NCBI RefSeq assembly: GCF_035594765.1
Contig: NC_085845.1
Location: 167,416,897 to 167,480,896 of the forward strand
Length of the DNA: 64,000 bases
Reading direction: 5' to 3'
Source: Anolis carolinensis
Lineage: Eukaryota
Positions 9,041-27,846 of this stretch are shown here, piece by piece (the first letter of the stretch is position 1; every line of letters starts with the position of its first letter). The notes beneath the pieces are model-generated. The model did not search any database. It had not been told where the DNA came from and was given only the letters and a program-made list of their open reading frames with translations. Made by a program: the position numbers and the translations under genes.

Positions 9041-9459
9041 GTATCCCTCCTCCGCGTCCAGGCATGTTGCGCCCTCCCCTGGGTCCTCCACCTGGATTAT
9101 TCCCTCCAGCTCCTCTTCCAAACCCTGGGGTGCTGAGTGCTCCCCCCAGTTTGATTCAGCGCCCCAAGGTGGATGATACCAGTGCAGCCACCATTGAGAA
9201 GAAAGCCACCGCAACGATCAGTGCCAAGCCCCAGATCACCAACCCCAAGGCCGAGATCACCCGCTTTGTTCCCACGGCCCTGAGGGTCCGTCGAGAAAAC
9301 AAGGGGACGCCTGCCTCTGCCCAAAGGAAGCCCGACGACGAACCATCTGTGCAGATAACTAAGCCCATGCCCAAGATGGGCTCGTCTGCCCCTGTTTCTG
9401 TGCAAACCAAGGATGATGTGTATGAAGCTTTCATGAAGGAAATGGAGGGGCTGCTGTGA
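9041..9459 (+). CDS. WBP11: WBP11 last coding exon
   Basis: cag|GTATCCCT... to TGA; ends TKDDVYEAFMKEMEGLL, the WBP11 C-terminus; candidate AATAAA at 10019-10024 and 10242-10247. Confidence 0.96.
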
Positions 9460-10771
9460 CAACCTGTTCCTAGTTAATCTTTGCATATTCTATGATGAGA
9501 TCATACTACTATGTTAGGGGTTCCATGTTATAGTGGCATCCAGTTGAAGAGCTCATTGTTTTGTGACAAGGAATAGTTCTCTATCTCAGTTAACGTGTGA
9601 TCAGAGTTGGAGGAAGGGGAGACTATAGAGAAAGAAAGAGAGACTGTCATCTACTCTTTGTGAAAGTTTATTAAGACTCACTTGTGTCTCTCTGCTCCCT
9701 GGAAAAGCTGTTGTTTCCTTGAATACTATTTTTAGTTAATGCAAAGAATACACCCGAAGAACCAAAACGTACTGGTAAACTATTTCCTGCATATAGGCCT
9801 GATCATCAGGTTGTTGTATTCTGTTTTGGTGGCTTTCTGTAAATATTTTGTAATGCTGATTTTTAGTTGAGTGAGATAATTGGTTTACACACTGTCCTAG
9901 AGCTGGGTAGGCTACTGTTTGCATATGTGGCATGCAGACATTTTGCACCCGAAATATATATCCTGCAGTCACTTCGGTGGTTTTTTGCTGACAGGAGAAA
10001 TATTGTCTTATGAATGAGAATAAAAATTTGATGTACTACAACCCTCTGTATGACTGAGTATCTATACCAGTATTTTGAGGAGAGATAACTAGAGGAACTG
10101 ACAACCAATTTATTTTATTTTGGTAAAATATCTCTAATGTGAAAATAATCTATAAAGGACATCATTATTTTGATTCCATCAGGGAAATAAGTATAGGTTT
10201 GTATCTGATCGTGTCTTTTTAAATTCAGATTCTGCATGTGAAATAAATAGATTCTGTTCATATCTTCAGAGACTTGCAATATGTGAGGGAAAGAGAATAC
10301 TGGATTTGTGGAAATATCATTTTATACAGCTTAGGTTGGTATCGGCTCTAATTTACATGGGCTGCCTGTCAGATGGAGTGGAAAGAACAACTCATGCAGG
10401 GACACTTTGTTTACTTAGAAAAACATGATTTAAATCACATTTTATTGTTGCTGCGGAGAACTGTAACTCAAATAGAAGTCAAAGAGAGAATCGGTTGAAA
10501 CTGTACAGATTCACCTGCTTGTAGTTTCTCAAGTTGCTCCTGACACAAAAAAATTGCTTTGAATTCTTTTCACCACCACCTTTCCATATGTGATAACAGC
10601 CTACAAAACATTTAAGCTTTCCCTGTGATGACCAATGTATTTTTAAAAACTTATGTTGCAAGAAATGCCAATTCTGTTTATGCACATCGTATCACAAACA
10701 TTGAATGAATGTTCATACCATCAAAGAAGTTTAGCATCTGCTTCTGACAGCATTCTTGGGTGGATATAGCA

Positions 10772-10896
10772 CAAGCATGGGCAAACTTCATCCCTCCAGA
10801 TGTTTTGGACTTCAACTCTCACAATTCCTAACAGCCACAGAAATTGTGAATGTTGTAGTCCAAAACACCTGGAGGGCTGAAGTTTGCCCATGCCTG
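10772..10896. mobile_element. hAT-type MITE
   Basis: TIRs CA(A/G)GCATGGGCAAACTT / AAGTTTGCCCATGCCTG; same family as 14469-14602. Confidence 0.75.
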
Positions 10897-11458
10897 ATAA
10901 TAGCATCATATCACCTGCTAAGGTGAGTGGAAAAGAAACAGATGACCATAGGAAGAGGTCTATAGAAGGATGTTTGTAGCAAATTGTCTTCATAGGATTA
11001 AAATGTTACATTCACAATTCTTTGTCTATGCTCACATGCGGAAAATGTCTCCTGGAAGCTAAAAGACTTTCAGTTAACTGGAACTCTTCAAGTATTCCAT
11101 CAAAAATGCTTTAAATAAAAATTGAAATAAATATTTATAGTAAAATGGTTACATTAAAGTTTGCTTTTGTTTGTTTTAATTTGCTTTTAATTGCTGTATT
11201 TCAATATTAATATCAATTCAGTACAGAGTTTATGGTACAGTATGAGGTATAGCTAATAGGCCTATTTTAAATCTCAAGCAACTAGAAACTACATTTACCT
11301 GGCATCTACCAATACCTATGGGTTGCCAGTTAACTGAGATGGTGCAGTAATGAAGAAAGTGTCTTTCAGCAAGTGCGGCGCCCCTTCAATAAACTGGTGA
11401 GAAAACATTTATATACTGCCTTTCTCACCCCTAGGGGGGCTCAAAGTGGTTCACAACA

Positions 11459-13751: not shown

Positions 13752-14110
13752 TGTTGTCAAAGGCTTTCATGGCCAGAATCACGGGGTTGCTGTGAGTTTT
13801 CTAGGCTGTGTGGCCATGTTCCAGAAGCATTCTCTCCTGATGTTTCACCCACATCTATGACAGGCATCCTCAGAGGTTTTGAGGTATATTGGAAACTAGG
13901 CAAGTGGGGTTTATATATCTGGAATGTTCAGGGTGAGAGAAAGATCTCTTATCTGTCTGAGGCAAGTGTGAATGTAGCAACTGACCATTTTGATTAGCAT
14001 TGAATGGCCTTTCAGCTTCAAAGCCTGGCTGCTTCCTGCCTGAGGCAATCCTTTGTTGGGAGGTGCTAACTGGCCCTGATTGTTTCTTGTCTGAAATTCC
14101 CCTCTTTTCA
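13752..14110 (-). mobile_element. Penelope-like retroelement terminal (pLTR-like) fragment with hammerhead-like motif
   Basis: same family as ~16225, 18527, 21465, 21830, 22575, 24260, 24862 and 62081; minus strand CCTCTGAGGATGCCTGTCATAGATGTGGGTGAAACATCAGG. Confidence 0.65.
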
Positions 14111-14468
14111 GAGCAAATAAATTAAAGAAAAGGTTGGCTCAGAGTGGAAACAGAGACAGTGCATGAAAAGAATCATTAAAAGTCTATAAAAAGGCTGATT
14201 TACAAAAAGGGAAGTACAGTAGCATTATTTTGTTGCAAGGAGAGCTATTTGGGGACACCTATAACAGTAAAGGCTACAAACTCTCGATTTTAAAGGTGCT
14301 ACAGTTGCCACGATAAAGGCTCAGAAGGAGCTACTGTTTCCCATGTCAATTTCAGGCTCGCTTTGTGGGATGCAAACCACTTTATTTCTATGAGAGCAAA
14401 GCGACTCTTCCCTGGAGGAAGTTTTGGGTCTGAAAAGAAAGGCTTGTCCCAGTTAAAGTGGTATAGAT

Positions 14469-14602
14469 TAGGCATGGGCAAACTTTGGCCCTCCAGGTGT
14501 TGTGGACTTCAACTCCCACCATTCCTAACAGCCTGCTGGCTGTTAGGAATGGTGGGAGTTGAAGTCCACAACACCCGGAGGGCCAAAGTTTGCCCATGCC
14601 TG
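14469..14602. mobile_element. palindromic hAT MITE with 8-bp TSD
   Basis: near-perfect 134-bp inverted repeat; TSD GTATAGAT at 14461-14468 and 14603-14610. Confidence 0.9.
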
Positions 14603-14694
14603 GTATAGATGCACCCTGAGATGGCTCCACTCTCAGGTATGAACCTGTTTGCTAGTTTATACACAATGAACGGGTAGGTATTCATATGTACATA

Positions 14695-14880
14695 TTATTC
14701 AATGGGATTGTTACAGGCTCCGACATTAGCGGTGGCTCTTAAAGAGAGCCTTTGGGTTCTTTCTTTAGCGGCGCGCGCCTGTATTTAGACTCCAGCCCTC
14801 TCTGCCTTCTGATTGGCTGGAACGAAGAGCGTCGATTTCTCATTGGAGAATGCCCGGGTTTCAAAACTCGCGCGCTTTTG
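14695..14880 (-). pseudogene. histone gene remnant: promoter fused directly to 3' stem-loop, coding region absent
   Basis: minus strand: CCAAT (14842-14846), CCAAT (14812-14816), TATA-like TCTAAATA (14782-14789), then AACCCAAA-GGCTCTCTTTAAGAGCC-ACC (14734-14750), then a flank matching the H3 3' flank. Confidence 0.75.
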
Positions 14881-15139
14881 CCTGCGGGGAGAAAGGCACC
14901 GCCTCGATTTCCGCCAATTTCTCTTGCTTGAAAAACAAAACAGGCGCCCGGGTTTAATCCCTAATCGGGGCTGTGCTTGAAAGCCGCTTTTGGGATTGAT
15001 TGTTTAGAGCCATTCCTTCTACACTCCTTTCTCTCTGTGTGTGTGTGTGTCTCTCTCCCCCCACATCAATTTAAAGCTTTATACTATGTATAGGTTGAAA
15101 AATACTGGCCAGAAGGGACAAAGGTACTGATGAGCGGAT

Positions 15140-15697: not shown

Positions 15698-15782
15698 GAA
15701 GTATTCAACGAGACGTGTGATCCAATACAACAGCCAGCATAATGATCTTGTTTGCTGTGTACTAATTTACTTGTGTATCAAA
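15140..15782 (-). mobile_element. (TAA)n/(CAA)n microsatellite field with tandem 3' ends of an R4/Dong-like non-LTR element
   Basis: repeated TATGACACAGCAAACAAGATAGATATGCTGGATTT unit at ~15387 and ~15540; minus strand reads approximately AILLGSARII..IT, like the C-terminus of R4/Dong elements, a clade known to target TAA repeats. Confidence 0.55.
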
Positions 15783-15784
15783 TA

Positions 15785-16098
15785 CAGTAGAGTCTCATTT
15801 ATCCAAGACTCGCTTATCCAAGGTTCTGGATTATCCAAGCCATTTTTGTAGTCAGTTTTCAATATATCGTGATATTTTGGTGCTAAATTCGTAACTACAG
15901 TAATTACAACATAACATGACTGCGTACTGAACTACCTTTTCTGTCAAATTTGTTGTATAACATGATGTTTTGATGCTTAATTTGTAAAATCATAACTTAA
16001 TTTGATAGGCTTTTCCTTAATCCCTCCTTATTATCCAAGATATTTGCTTATCCAAGGTTCTGCTGGCCCGTTTAGCTTGGATAAGTGAGAGTCTACTG
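15785..16098. mobile_element. Tc1/mariner (pogo/Tigger-like) MITE
   Basis: TA TSD; TIR CAGTAGAGTCTCA(C/T)TTATCCAA. Confidence 0.88.
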
Positions 16099-16679
16099 TA
16101 ATAATAAAAATAAATACTAATATTAGCGGGTTTTGCTTCATTGTAACGTTTATAAACTTCGGGACAAGGTCCCGCTGAATTTAATAGGGCTTCCTCTGAA
16201 CAGTGCTGAAAAGCCTATGGCTATCGAAGCCTTTCATGGCCGGAATCACTGGATTGCTGTGAGTTTTCCAGATGGTAAGACCATGTTTCAGAAGCATTCC
16301 CTCCTGACGTTTCGCCCACATCTATGGCAGGTATCCTTAGAGACGAAATACAGCACGGGAAAACTCACAGCAACCCAGTCCATAGCTAGTTTAGTCCATT
16401 GAGTTCAACAAACCTTCCTCTGAAGACTGAATGCACCTAAGACGATGAAGAGACCCTTTGCTACAGCGTTGCTCATTTTGGGGGCTGCTGTCGAATGAAC
16501 ACCTCTTGACACCTCTTTGCTACGGAATCCTGGGCTTTGTCGTTTGGTCAGGCACCAGTGGAAGTAGGGTCAAACTGCCCACAGCAGGCATGGGCCAACC
16601 TGGGCCTCCGAAGGGGCTCCTGGTGCGCTTTGCCGGGGCCTCGCCTGATTAGCAATGGTGCCTCTCCTGACTGGCAGCC

Positions 16680-17189: not shown

Positions 17190-17882
17190 ATGTCTGAGAC
17201 CGCTCCCGCCGCTTCGGCGACAGCTTCGGCTGCCGCCTCGGCCCCAGTGGCCGCGCCGAAAGCGCCGGCGAAGAAGGCGAAGAAAGCGGCCGCCAAGCCG
17301 CGCAAGGCTTCGGGCCCCAGCGTCACCGAGCTGCTCACCAAGGCGGTGTCGGCCTCCAAGGAGCGCAAAGGCGTCTCTCTGGCGGCGCTGAAGAAGGCCT
17401 TGGCGGCCGGCGGGTATGACGTGGAGAAGAACAACAGCCGCATCAAGCTGGGCCTCAAGAGCCTGGTGAGCAAGGGCACGCTGGTGCACACCAAAGGCAT
17501 CGGCGCCTCGGGCTCCTTCAAGATCGGGAAGAAAGCCGAGGGCGGCGCGAAGGAGAAGGCGGCGGCGCCCAAGAGGAAGGCCCCCGCCAAGGCCAAGGCC
17601 GCCCGGAAGCCCGCCGCCAAGGCCAAGAAGCCCAAGAAGGCCGCCTCCGCCTCCAAGAGCCCTAAGAAGAGCCCCAAGAAGCCCAAGAAGCCCGCCGCCA
17701 AGAAGGCCGCCGCCGCTAAGAGCCCCAAGAAGGCCAAGCCTGTCAAGCCCAAGAAGGTGGCCAAGAGCCCCGCCAAGGCCCGGCCAGCCAAGCCCAAGGC
17801 GGCCAAGCCCAAGGCGGCGGGGAAGGCCAAGGCGGCCGGCGGGAAGGGCCAAGGCAAGCGGGCGGCGCCCAAGAGGAAGTAG
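17190..17882 (+). CDS. H1: linker histone H1 (replication-dependent), 230 aa
   Basis: MSETAPAA..., globular domain [55 protein letters not shown], Lys/Ala tail with SPKK motifs; intronless. Confidence 0.97.
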
Positions 17883-17939: not shown

Positions 17940-17980
17940 GGCTCTTTTAAGAGCCACCCACTCCCTCAGGAAAAGAGCTG
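17940..17980 (+). terminator. histone 3' stem-loop and U7 HDE (H1)
   Basis: GGCTCTTTTAAGAGCC 17940-17955, ACCCA, AAAAGAGCTG 17971-17980. Confidence 0.95.
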
Positions 17981-20115: not shown

Positions 20116-20639
20116 ATGGTGTGAGAGAGGAGGGCCTGAGAAAAGAGCCCAAGGGGGCGCATCCGGTCCCGGGCTTCCCCATTCCTGGATTAGATAGACG
20201 ACCAAATGTGGGAGCAAACGAGAGACAAAAAGCCCTTCAGGATCGTGGTATTTTATCTCCTGAACACGAACGTGGGTAAGGCATTCTTCAGGGCTCATAG
20301 CAAACTGTCCCCAAAAGTATAGATTGGATACTATGTGCCATTGAGCCCTGCAGGAATTACTCAAGAGGAAATGCGTCCCAGGAAATAACCGCGTCCCGCT
20401 TTAAGACTCTCCCCAAAAGTTGTCTTACTCTCAAGTACCAATAAGAGGTGTTTCACATTCCCGCGTTTTTCCTTACATTGCGCGCAATGGCAAATCTATA
20501 TCGCGGAGGGTTTCATTTAAAATCCAGTCCTAGACCCGTATCGCTGATGTCAAAGAAATGTCAAGCGCGCATATTTTTGTCAATGAACGCGCCTTTCGAT
20601 CGTGTCCAATGCCTGGTCTCCTCTCCAGGCTGGTGTGAC

Positions 20640-21237
<598 letters not shown>

Positions 21238-21286: not shown

Positions 21287-21326
21287 GGCTCTTTTAAGAG
21301 CCACCCACCGCTTCAGGAAAGAGCTG
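21287..21326 (+). terminator. histone 3' stem-loop and HDE (H2B)
   Basis: GGCTCTTTTAAGAGCC 21287-21302, ACCCA, AAAGAGCTG 21318-21326. Confidence 0.95.
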
Positions 21327-22574
21327 GCGTCACCTTCGTTGCTGTTGTGCCTTCAAGCTAATCATGAGGCTGAGAGTGTGTGACTCCCAAGGCCCCATTC
21401 ACACTGCCATGTAAATCCAACTCCCAGAATGAGCCATTCCAAGTGCCAAACAATATTAACATTGTGTTGCTGTGAGTTTTCTGAGCTGTGGCCATGTTCC
21501 AGAAGCATTCTCTCCTGATGCTTCGCCCACATCTATGGCAAGCATCCTCAGAGGTTGAGGTCTGTTGGAAACTAGGCAAGTGGGGTTTATATGTCTGAAT
21601 GTTTCAATTGGCCACCTTGATTAGCATTGAATAGCCTTTCAGCTTCAAGGCCTGGCTGCTTGCTGCCTGGAGGAATCCTTTGTTGGGAGGTGTTAGCTGG
21701 CCCTGGTTGTTGTGCCTTCAAGTTAATCATGGGGCTGAGAGTGTGACTCCCAAGGCCCCATTCACAGTGCCATGTAAATCCAACTCCCAGAATCTCAGTA
21801 TTGAGCCATGCCAAGTGCAAACAGGGATTCCAGACATGAATTAATCAGAACCAGCTTATTTGTTTATCATGTCAAAAGCGAACCAAGAGTACAAGTTGCA
21901 ATGTTGCAAACACAGTTAAAAAAAAAACAGGCATTATACTAAAGGGCCAGCTAACACCTCCCAACAAAGGATTCCCCCAGGCAGGAAGCAGCCAGACATT
22001 GAAGATGCAAGGCTGTTCAATGCTAATCAAGGTGGTAAATTGCAACAGTCACACTTACCTCAGGCAGACAAGAGTTCTTTCTCCCACCCTGAACATTACA
22101 CAGATATATAAACCCAACTTATCTTGTTCCCAACAGACCTCACAAAAGCATTGATACTATGTAGGTGTATGGATTGTTACTGAATTTTAAAGTTATTCTC
22201 CCCCGCCTTGGCTAATTGAAAGATATGCAGGCAAGTTGCCTCCCTTAGCAGACAAGCCTGCCACGTTATTCATTTTTTTTAATTAACAAGACGAAATAAT
22301 ACTGTAATACATGCATATAAAAAAGCAAGAGCGTCTGGTTATTTGCAGAAAATTAGTATTGAACCAAAGCTGCGTAGCGAAAAGGATTTACAATTTTGAA
22401 ATACCCGCCTTTTGCTGTGATTGGTCCACTCGAGGAGGTTCCCCGGCGCTTTTTATCCAATAGCTGTGTTCGAAAGGGACTGATTTCCCTTTATGATCTT
22501 TTACATATTACATTCACAGACGTTCATATATTTTAAAAGCTAAAATCGTGATTATTGAGTAACCTACGAAATAT

Positions 22575-22866: not shown

Positions 22867-23074
22867 AAATATAGTCTTTCAAAAGCGGCTTTACTGTTCT
22901 AACTCCAATTCACACAGCACTTGATAGATTATTATTTAAATAATATTAAAATAATAATATTTCGATAATAATCCTTATTATTTGAATTATTTAAATAGGA
23001 GGGTGATGTTTAAGATGCATAAGAATAGAACTTGTTTTTTCTCCCTCCGCAGTCCTATTTCCTTATTCTAAATA

Positions 23075-23398
23075 CAGTAGAGTCTCACTTATCCAAGACT
23101 CGCTTATCCAAGGTTCTGAATTATCCAGGGCATTTTTGTAGTCAATGTTTTCAATATATTATATTTTGGTGCTAAATTCGTAAATGCAGTAATTACAACA
23201 TAACATTACTGCGTATTGAACTACTTTTTCTATCAAATTTGTTGTATGACATGATGTTTTGGTGCTTGATTTGTAAAATCATAACCTAATTTGATGTTTA
23301 ATAGGCTTTTCCTTAATCCCTCCTTATTATCCAAGATATTCGCTTATCCAACCAAGGTTCTGCCGGCCCGTTTAGCTTGGATAAGTGCGACTCTACTG
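23075..23398. mobile_element. Tc1/mariner MITE
   Basis: TA TSD and CAGTAGAGTC TIRs. Confidence 0.88.
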
Positions 23399-23499
23399 TA
23401 ATGTATTTTGCAAGAAAACGAATGGCTACTTAATGAAAATGCCCGTTCGCTAGCTTTTGTTGTTGAGGCGCTTTGCAAGGAGTTTGCAAGGCAAGAGCG

Positions 23500-24103
<604 letters not shown>

Positions 24104-24142
24104 GGACGGACGCCCCCGTTAGAAAGAATGAACGAACCCAAA

Positions 24143-24183
24143 GGCTCTTTTAAGAGCCACCACTTCCTCGGGCGAAGGAGCTG
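24143..24183 (+). terminator. histone 3' stem-loop and HDE (H3)
   Basis: GGCTCTTTTAAGAGCC 24143-24158; GAAGGAGCTG 24174-24183. Confidence 0.93.
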
Positions 24184-24259
24184 AAGGCGCTTCCCTTTCC
24201 TTTTGTCAGACTCTTAATATTGGGGCCTGTAACAATCTCATTGAAAACTAGTCCAGTCG

Positions 24260-26430: not shown

Positions 26431-27846
26431 TATCTATTTCCATAACTGAAACCCCCCTTACATTGCCATATAATGCAGTTTCAGATTGCAGTTGGAACTG
26501 CATAATGTGGCACTGTAGACTAATATAATCTTGTTCAATGTTATTAAAATTGCTTTGTGAAACTGCATTGTTATATGCCAGTGTAGATGTGGCCTGAGAT
26601 ATATGAAAAAAGAGATTTGACTATACCTATTTTGATGTATTTTGGCACTTTTTACACAGCATAGCTTTTCTTTGCAGATTATCTTATTAACAACTGCATC
26701 CTGACTCCTTGGTCTCGCAAGTCCAGAAATGTTTGGCTGGCTTCACATCACTGGTCATAATAATAATAATAATAATAATAACAATACTAAATCTATTTGA
26801 ACCCCACCACCATCTTCCCGAGGGGACTCAGTGCAGCTCACAGAAGCACTAGTGTCACATATAGACCACTACACCGTATAAAATATATGACATAAATATA
26901 AAAACAACAATACATGTAAAATCCCAGTAAAAATTGTAAAAAATATTTTAAAAATCTTAAAATGCAGTAGAACATGCGAATAAGCTGGCTATCTGCAATA
27001 ACTAAGTGCGGAGTGTCACAATCGGTGGCTCATTGGGCTGGACAGAATGACACAGGCTCAAAGGCCTGTCTGAAGAGTCATGTTTTTAAACTCACCCAAA
27101 AGTCTTGAAGGGTGGGGGCAAGTTTAATTTCTTTAGGGAGGGTATTCCAGAGCCGGGGAACCACTACTGAGACGACCCTGTCTCTCGTCCCCATGAACTG
27201 TATTTGAGACGGTGGTTGGACCAAGAGAAGGGCCTCTCCGTCAGATACCAATGCCCGCACTGCTTCATAGAAGGAAATGTAGTCTCAAAGACAGGTTGTA
27301 ACTGAATCATGTAAGAGGTCTTCTCCTGTCACTTTAACCCTGCAAGCAACCAAGCTTCGCTTTAAACCAGGGTCTTTAGGAAGCTGCAACCTGCCACCAG
27401 CTGCTCGTGTGGCGAGACCGATATGAGTATCTGTTCCGATGTGTTCCTGTGATAAGGACCAAGCCAGGTGCCTCCTTGGTGAGCTGCCAGGGCTTTGGTG
27501 CCCAGACAAAGGCTGACCCTGTAGCTGGGTCTGCAAACCACCCACTCTTTCCATTCTCCATAATAGTGGAAAATCATTGTGGGGGAAATAAACAAGGTGG
27601 CACCTGTAGAGGCTGCTGCCAAATGCTTCCTGGGGGCATAGGAACCTTTAGTAAGTGTTGCACTCCACCAGGCATGGGCAAACTTTGGCCCTCCACGTGT
27701 TTTGGACTTTAACTCCCACAATTTCTAACAGCTGGCATCTCAAACCTTATAAAGAATGTATTGTGTGTATGGAAAATAGATTTCAGGGGAAGTATGGTAC
27801 CGCTCCAAAAATCTTCTGGCCAACATGTCACACTGTCTGGGGATAG

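Follow-up and report, generated by a model that had tools for sequence, protein, structure and literature searches.

A probable relic of an H3 gene, reduced to promoter and stem-loop, beside WBP11 in Anolis carolinensis

In the 64,000-nucleotide stretch of Anolis carolinensis DNA analysed here (the window), the 3′ coding end of WBP11 (9064–9459, plus strand, named by its homologues) is followed by a minus-strand element at 14698–14875 and then by intact H1, H2B and H3 genes, all on the plus strand. The element consists of a promoter, a hairpin and a 3′ flank with no ORF among them, and is called the ghost below; it occupies the first histone position after WBP11 and is convergent to that gene. 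The H1 gene (17190–17882) and the H2B gene (20857–21237) are each followed by a canonical stem-loop (17940–17955 and 21287–21302, respectively), and the H2B gene has no divergent H2A ORF. The live H3 gene, presumably of the H3.2 type, extends over 23430–24245 and comprises a promoter, an ORF (23693–24103), a hairpin (24143–24158), an HDE and a flank. A TA-flanked transposon of about 330 bp (23073–23400) lies immediately upstream of this H3 promoter, with a related copy near 15780–16100, and pentraxin and F5/8-type lectin exons are located downstream of the histone genes.

We have also searched the whole genome (1.85 Gb in 211 contigs, with the window on contig C5) and found at least 8 full-length H3, at least 10 H4 and at least 9 H2B genes, together with at least 19 matches to the H2A C-terminal domain. 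None of the genome-wide H2A or H4 matches falls on contig C5. The local H2B is 93–94% identical to the other 8 full-length H2B, with a divergent N-terminal tail. Contig C2 carries an isolated, short (161 aa) and divergent H1-like gene that has both a canonical stem-loop and an HDE (L074, about 31.22 Mb, minus strand), two 169-aa H2A genes inverted relative to each other, which have stem-loops and long C-terminal tails (L023/L024, 29.62–29.63 Mb), and a 126-aa H2A whose ORF is uninterrupted, with no stem-loop in the 190–200 nt downstream (L022, 65.62 Mb, minus strand). The last is a candidate polyadenylated H2A variant, situated away from WBP11.

The promoter, hairpin and flank motifs quoted in the earlier note were all located on the minus strand at the positions it had given for them. 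Read along that strand, the ghost opens with GCGCGCGAGTTTTGAAA (14859–14875), in which a GC-rich, E2F/CDE-like element lies 4 nt upstream of a canonical, CHR-like TTTGAA; this is an H3-promoter signature, and its spacing matches the CDE/CHR geometry and the CHR definition in the excerpted text of PMC4176359. The distal CCAAT box (14842–14846) is 30 nt from the proximal one, the same distance as in the live H3 gene, and the proximal box CCAGCCAATCAGAAG (14806–14820, CCAAT at 14816) matches those of H3 promoters. These upstream boxes are intact, and the ghost retains the class-typical promoter of a functional histone gene. They are followed by an ambiguous segment containing a GAGAGG repeat (14791–14805) and by TCTAAATA (14782–14789), which has one mismatch as a TATA box. 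The spacing from CCAAT to TCTAAATA is 27–29 nt, compared with 23–24 nt from proximal CCAAT to TATA in all 8 H3 genes and 33–37 nt in 7 of the 8 anchored H2A promoters. The ghost promoter contains 15 CpGs in 156 nt and has a CpG o/e of 1.24, as against 0.88–0.99 in live histone promoters and 0.22–0.27 in the background, so the CpGs are retained, as had been claimed. This retention is compatible with youth as well as with continued factor binding or an unmethylated state; it fits either and does not separate them.

Class profile HMMs were built from the histone promoters of this genome, one of the 39 genes being dropped for want of a TATA anchor, and assigned 36 of 38 promoters correctly in leave-one-out runs. 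The ghost promoter scored 21.3 bits as H3, compared with 10.7 as H2B, 7.0 as H2A, 0.9 as H1 and −1.2 as H4. With the local H3 removed from the H3 profile it scored 19.0 bits, the live local H3 reaching 23.5 bits in leave-one-out. In pairwise promoter matches among the 39 genes, the local H3 was the best (z 4.5) and the top four were all H3. The combination of a GC-rich element and TT(T)SAAA, by a pattern written after the sequences had been seen, occurs in 7 of 8 H3 promoters and in 0 of 31 other histone promoters, 0 of 11 H2A promoters included. The bases around TCTAAATA resemble some H2A TATA regions (for example that of L028), and the ghost matches the H2A-side promoter of the H2B gene at 21 of 27 positions, a non-significant score (E 7.5).

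Behind the promoter, tblastn, blastn and class DNA profiles detected no remnant of histone coding sequence, and the distance from TCTAAATA to the hairpin is 39 nt, compared with 504–555 nt in 8 of 8 H3 genes. What follows on the minus strand is a remnant of an H3 3′ UTR (14751–14771), a histone stem-loop (14734–14750) and the 3′ flank (14698–14728). The stem-loop has a 6-bp stem and, owing to one inserted base, a 5-nt loop; it folds at −9.3 kcal/mol, while the three live hairpins, with their 4-nt loops, fold at −9.4 kcal/mol. Its score with the Rfam Histone3 model is 18.5 bits (E 0.93) against 30.1–39.6 bits for the three live genes, the live H3 hairpin itself lying below the 34-bit cut-off. 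SLBP requires four loop bases; our literature search on its tolerance of loop size returned no relevant paper.

The best match to the HDE motif GAAAGAGCTG in the 30 nt past the ghost hairpin is 5 of 10, compared with 7–10 of 10 in all 37 live 3′ ends examined, and the 51 bp that contain the HDE in the live H3 gene (24164–24214) are missing between the ghost hairpin and its flank. The flank agrees with that of the live H3 gene (24215–24245) at 27 of 31 positions, the runner-up among the 37 histone 3′ flanks tested reaching 17 of 31. A 24-nt flank pattern, allowing up to 2 mismatches, has exactly two matches in the 1.85-Gb genome, namely the ghost and the live H3 gene (control, 0), and a metagenome scan for the flank gave 0 matches. 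Alignment, motif scoring and folding thus bear out the earlier description of the flank, the absent HDE segment and the 5-nt loop. The ghost bears no fewer than three distinct lesions (a missing ORF, a missing HDE and an extra base in the loop), shares its flank with the live H3 gene alone, and cannot encode an H3 protein; an intact intronless ORF, a stem-loop with a 4-nt loop and a purine-rich HDE are the features of a functional histone gene that it lacks.

A strict genome-wide pattern for canonical stem-loops found 39, every one of them with an ORF ending 21–58 nt upstream; that all 39 live hairpins have a 4-nt loop follows from the pattern itself. The corresponding 5-nt-loop pattern gave three matches, with a histone context in the ghost only. 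The two others, on contig C2, are attributed to chance, since neither has a ghost-like CCAAT/TATA in the 120 nt before it or an HDE in the 50 nt after it. Within the strict and 5-nt-loop patterns searched, the ghost is the sole orphan hairpin. According to the excerpted texts of two papers, the ends of histone mRNAs arise by cleavage between the hairpin, to which SLBP binds, and the HDE, to which U7 binds (PMC1635294; PMC4604434), the purine-rich HDE after the hairpin being the element that serves U7 (PMC1635294). As the ghost has an enlarged loop and no HDE, normal histone 3′ processing is not expected, and the tiny hairpin RNA suggested in the earlier note is unlikely as a discrete product. 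Any transcript of the ghost would likely escape cutting as a histone mRNA and would continue in the direction of WBP11; on the ghost strand a poly(A) hexamer first occurs at 14386.

The direct join of promoter and hairpin is present in several individuals. A 361-bp stretch around the ghost has a single match in the genome, which is itself, and does not belong to a sequence with many genomic copies, a possibility that the earlier note had raised. The stretch or part of it is contained in 20 of the 24 sequencing runs listed, from 8 studies, four being flagged as a possible source of the assembly, and at least half of the sampled words are present in 18 of the 24. No RNA data set was listed among those containing the stretch, which does not bear on its expression. 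The contigs of four of these runs (X6, X9, X15 and X18) were compared with the assembly. One contig each from X6 and X9 extends across all 416 bp, and X15 covers 14615–15009; X18 covers 14615–14787 and 14883–15030 with a hole between, and does not span the promoter. The compared contigs were free of joints and loose ends. X6 may be the assembly's own source; X9 and X15 differ from the assembly at nearby sites and are therefore not its source. The latter two have in common a substitution at 14695 and an insertion of 2 bp at 14693, and represent a second haplotype in which the deletion is likewise present. As contigs drop rare variants, the spanning result does not cover a rare intact allele.

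The position of the deletion junction can be read in two ways, and the ORF is lost in either. In one reading TCTAAATA would be a mutated TATA box and the segment at 14791–14805 a promoter spacer; the cut would then lie 10–25 nt past TCTAAATA, with about 455–467 bp deleted. In the other, the cut would lie between two GAGAGG copies, the TATA box being lost as well and TCTAAATA being a chance look-alike in the former 3′ UTR. The two copies are at 23628 (between CCAAT and TATA) and 24092 (codons E-R) of the sister H3 gene, 464 bp apart. GAGAGG is the only 6-mer common to the sister's proximal promoter or 5′ UTR and its ORF end or 3′ UTR, and it lies at the best-scoring junction. With this junction, positions 14805–14791 would read A-E-R-A-G, the end of H3 (last codons E-R-A) with its stop mutated, and the remaining 3′ UTR would be 37 nt, compared with 36 in the sister and 26–48 in the 8 H3 genes; the odd CCAAT-TATA spacing would also disappear. 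Of 6 scoring settings, 5 place the GAGAGG junction level with the alternative or above it, with small differences. None of 37 real 3′ UTRs attains the 10.6 bits of the TATA-like match (simulated p about 0.001), and none of 8 H3 promoters attains the 11.7 bits of the ORF-end match (p about 0.002). Both are improbable by chance and only one can be ancestral, so that each reading needs one coincidence. The GAGAGG junction appears slightly the likelier, and the cut past TCTAAATA is nearly as probable. Of the surviving TATA box proposed in the earlier note, the letters stand; their identity as TATA is uncertain, the spacing being off and the upstream GAGAGG junction scoring as well or slightly better.

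In addition to the ghost, other remains of histone genes were found nearby. On the minus strand at 22387–22431 there is a second H3-type promoter relic, with CCAAT and an E2F/CHR-like element (H3 profile 16.2 bits, E 0.0018) and neither ORF nor hairpin behind it. A probable second, older hairpin with HDE, in a decayed state, lies at 14405–14445 (minus strand), with a score that none of 820 background windows attains, the relic having been found post hoc. It is 290 bp past the ghost hairpin and resembles the 3′ ends of H2B (L025) and H3. The H2B promoter has a weak H2A-type side (20561–20760, minus strand, 10.6 bits) that is CpG-rich, with reverse and forward CCAAT and without TATA or an H2A ORF; the usual divergent H2A partner of this H2B seems to have been lost. 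These relics suggest that the whole mini-cluster is decaying. Of these several remains, the ghost is the one in the best state of preservation, a pattern in favour of ordinary birth and death.

Several other candidates in the neighbourhood were rejected. A putative decayed piece of H2B coding sequence at 14602–14700 (tblastn E 2.3) aligned with z values of 1.7–3.4 against 9 H2B genes and of at most 1.3 against the other classes; scores as high were reached in 10 of 530 GC-matched windows and in 44 of 1064 background windows, the H2B DNA profile missed the segment, and it was not accepted. The hairpin-core match at 14102–14114 (plus strand) lies where a common interspersed repeat ends and is put down to chance, and the 13-nt match between 14980–14992 and 22880–22892 showed no extension in alignment. 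Rfam matches to miRNA families at 14495–14576 are below the gathering score and inside a palindromic miniature transposon (14470–14601), which is flanked by a ATCTATAC direct repeat and has family copies at about 10760–10899 and 27667–27732.

Since the promoter is of the H3 class and the flank is unique to the local H3, we read the ghost as the inverted sister of that gene. It is very probably a dead duplicate of its neighbour that decayed in place through internal deletion, and the earlier proposal, in which an H3 paralogue was deprived of ORF and HDE in this way, is well supported by the unique flank, the promoter class and the pairwise matches. We infer the ancestral state from the paralogues. 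The H3 gene would have been duplicated in inverted orientation, after which the copy died where it lay; the coding region would have gone in one deletion of about 460 bp, for which slippage or microhomology repair involving the two GAGAGG repeats is the slightly likelier route, and a second deletion, of 51 bp, would have removed the HDE. H3 descent, a place within the cluster, disabling lesions, and a promoter and post-cleavage flank that a retrocopy would not have kept are what an in-situ H3 pseudogene displays. Youth of the loss, or a lack of methylation in the CpG-rich cluster, likely accounts for the persistence of the promoter boxes, rather than selection.

Against death stands a promoter nearly as H3-like as that of the live local gene and rich in CpGs, which would fit continued use too. 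The ghost might then be an exapted regulatory element, an ORF-less NF-Y/E2F/CHR cell-cycle promoter kept by selection after a single microhomology-guided cut, and might serve as an enhancer or factor-recruiting site that drives or organises H1, H2B and H3, or produce a non-coding RNA that runs in the direction of the WBP11 3′ end. The intact CCAAT boxes, the high CpG o/e, the presence of the ghost on both haplotypes seen, and TTTGAA with its GC-rich element in CDE/CHR geometry (excerpted text of PMC4176359) are in keeping with this. We nevertheless consider exaptation unlikely: young age alone would explain the retention, the second ORF-less H3 promoter relic and the empty H2A-side promoter show that promoters outlast lost genes here, and the CCAAT-TATA spacing is off or the TATA box gone. 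It is less probable still that the lost gene was an H2A, or that the relic is a chimera in which the end of an H2A promoter was fused to an H3 tail. The position does speak for it, being the first histone place and convergent to WBP11, an orientation that we take mammalian H2AJ to share, and no H2A match falls on contig C5. H2AJ neighbours WBP11 in mammals (excerpted text of PMC9526256), and the L028-like context of TCTAAATA and the 21-of-27 match to the H2A side of the H2B promoter point the same way. The H2A profile score is, however, a third of the H3 score, the E2F/CHR-like element is absent from the H2A promoters, their CCAAT-TATA spacing is wider than that of the ghost, and the flank is H3-specific. 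Thus, of the link to H2AJ in the earlier note, the convergent position by WBP11 holds and the H2A identity, by ORF or by promoter class, does not; the ghost is unlikely to be an H2AJ orthologue, given 7.0 bits as H2A and 21.3 as H3. The least credible reading is a collapsed assembly whose true DNA holds an intact histone ORF. Near-identical repeated histone ORFs make this a reasonable prior concern, and the earlier note had named it as such; but contigs from three studies cross the join without joints, on two haplotypes and in two cases independently of the assembly's source, which makes collapse unlikely, and it would leave the loop insertion and the HDE loss unexplained.

A dead H3 duplicate would be in familiar company. 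In-situ pseudogenisation is a trait of clusters of replication-dependent histone genes (PMC9526256, section 10), with H2AC10P, H2BC19P/H2BC20P and H1-12P as human examples in the same section, and the ghost resembles them as a dead copy in a histone cluster beside live paralogues that is recognised by its position and cis-elements. Unlike such pseudogenes, it has no coding sequence, or at most 4–5 terminal codons, and would therefore be missed by protein-based pseudogene annotation. It is like its live H3 neighbour in promoter class, CCAAT pair, 3′ UTR end, stem-loop sequence and 3′ flank, and unlike it in lacking ORF and HDE, in the 5-nt loop, and in a TATA box that is mutated or lost. According to that paper, H2AJ and H4C16 lie beside WBP11 in mammals, and in chicken the one large cluster has WBP11 at its border (PMC9526256). 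Histone genes directly adjoin WBP11 in the lizard as well; unlike in mammals, H1, H2B and H3 are kept here and no H2A or H4 was found on contig C5, a set complementary to the mammalian pair. Our literature search returned no relevant account of squamate histone clusters, of this locus or of an ORF-less histone relic, which does not imply absence from print.

Taken together, in-situ histone pseudogenes are already known, and only the clean anatomy of the ghost is unusual; it would gain greater weight only if conservation or activity were shown. With an H3 promoter and neither ORF nor processing signals, the ghost is in addition a natural minigene, which would permit testing whether promoter elements alone recruit the vertebrate histone transcription factors. 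As a dead gene, it would be a tidy case of histone gene birth and death that is invisible to protein-based annotation, and together with the other relics it suggests that the WBP11-linked cluster was trimmed independently in this lineage to H1, H2B and H3.
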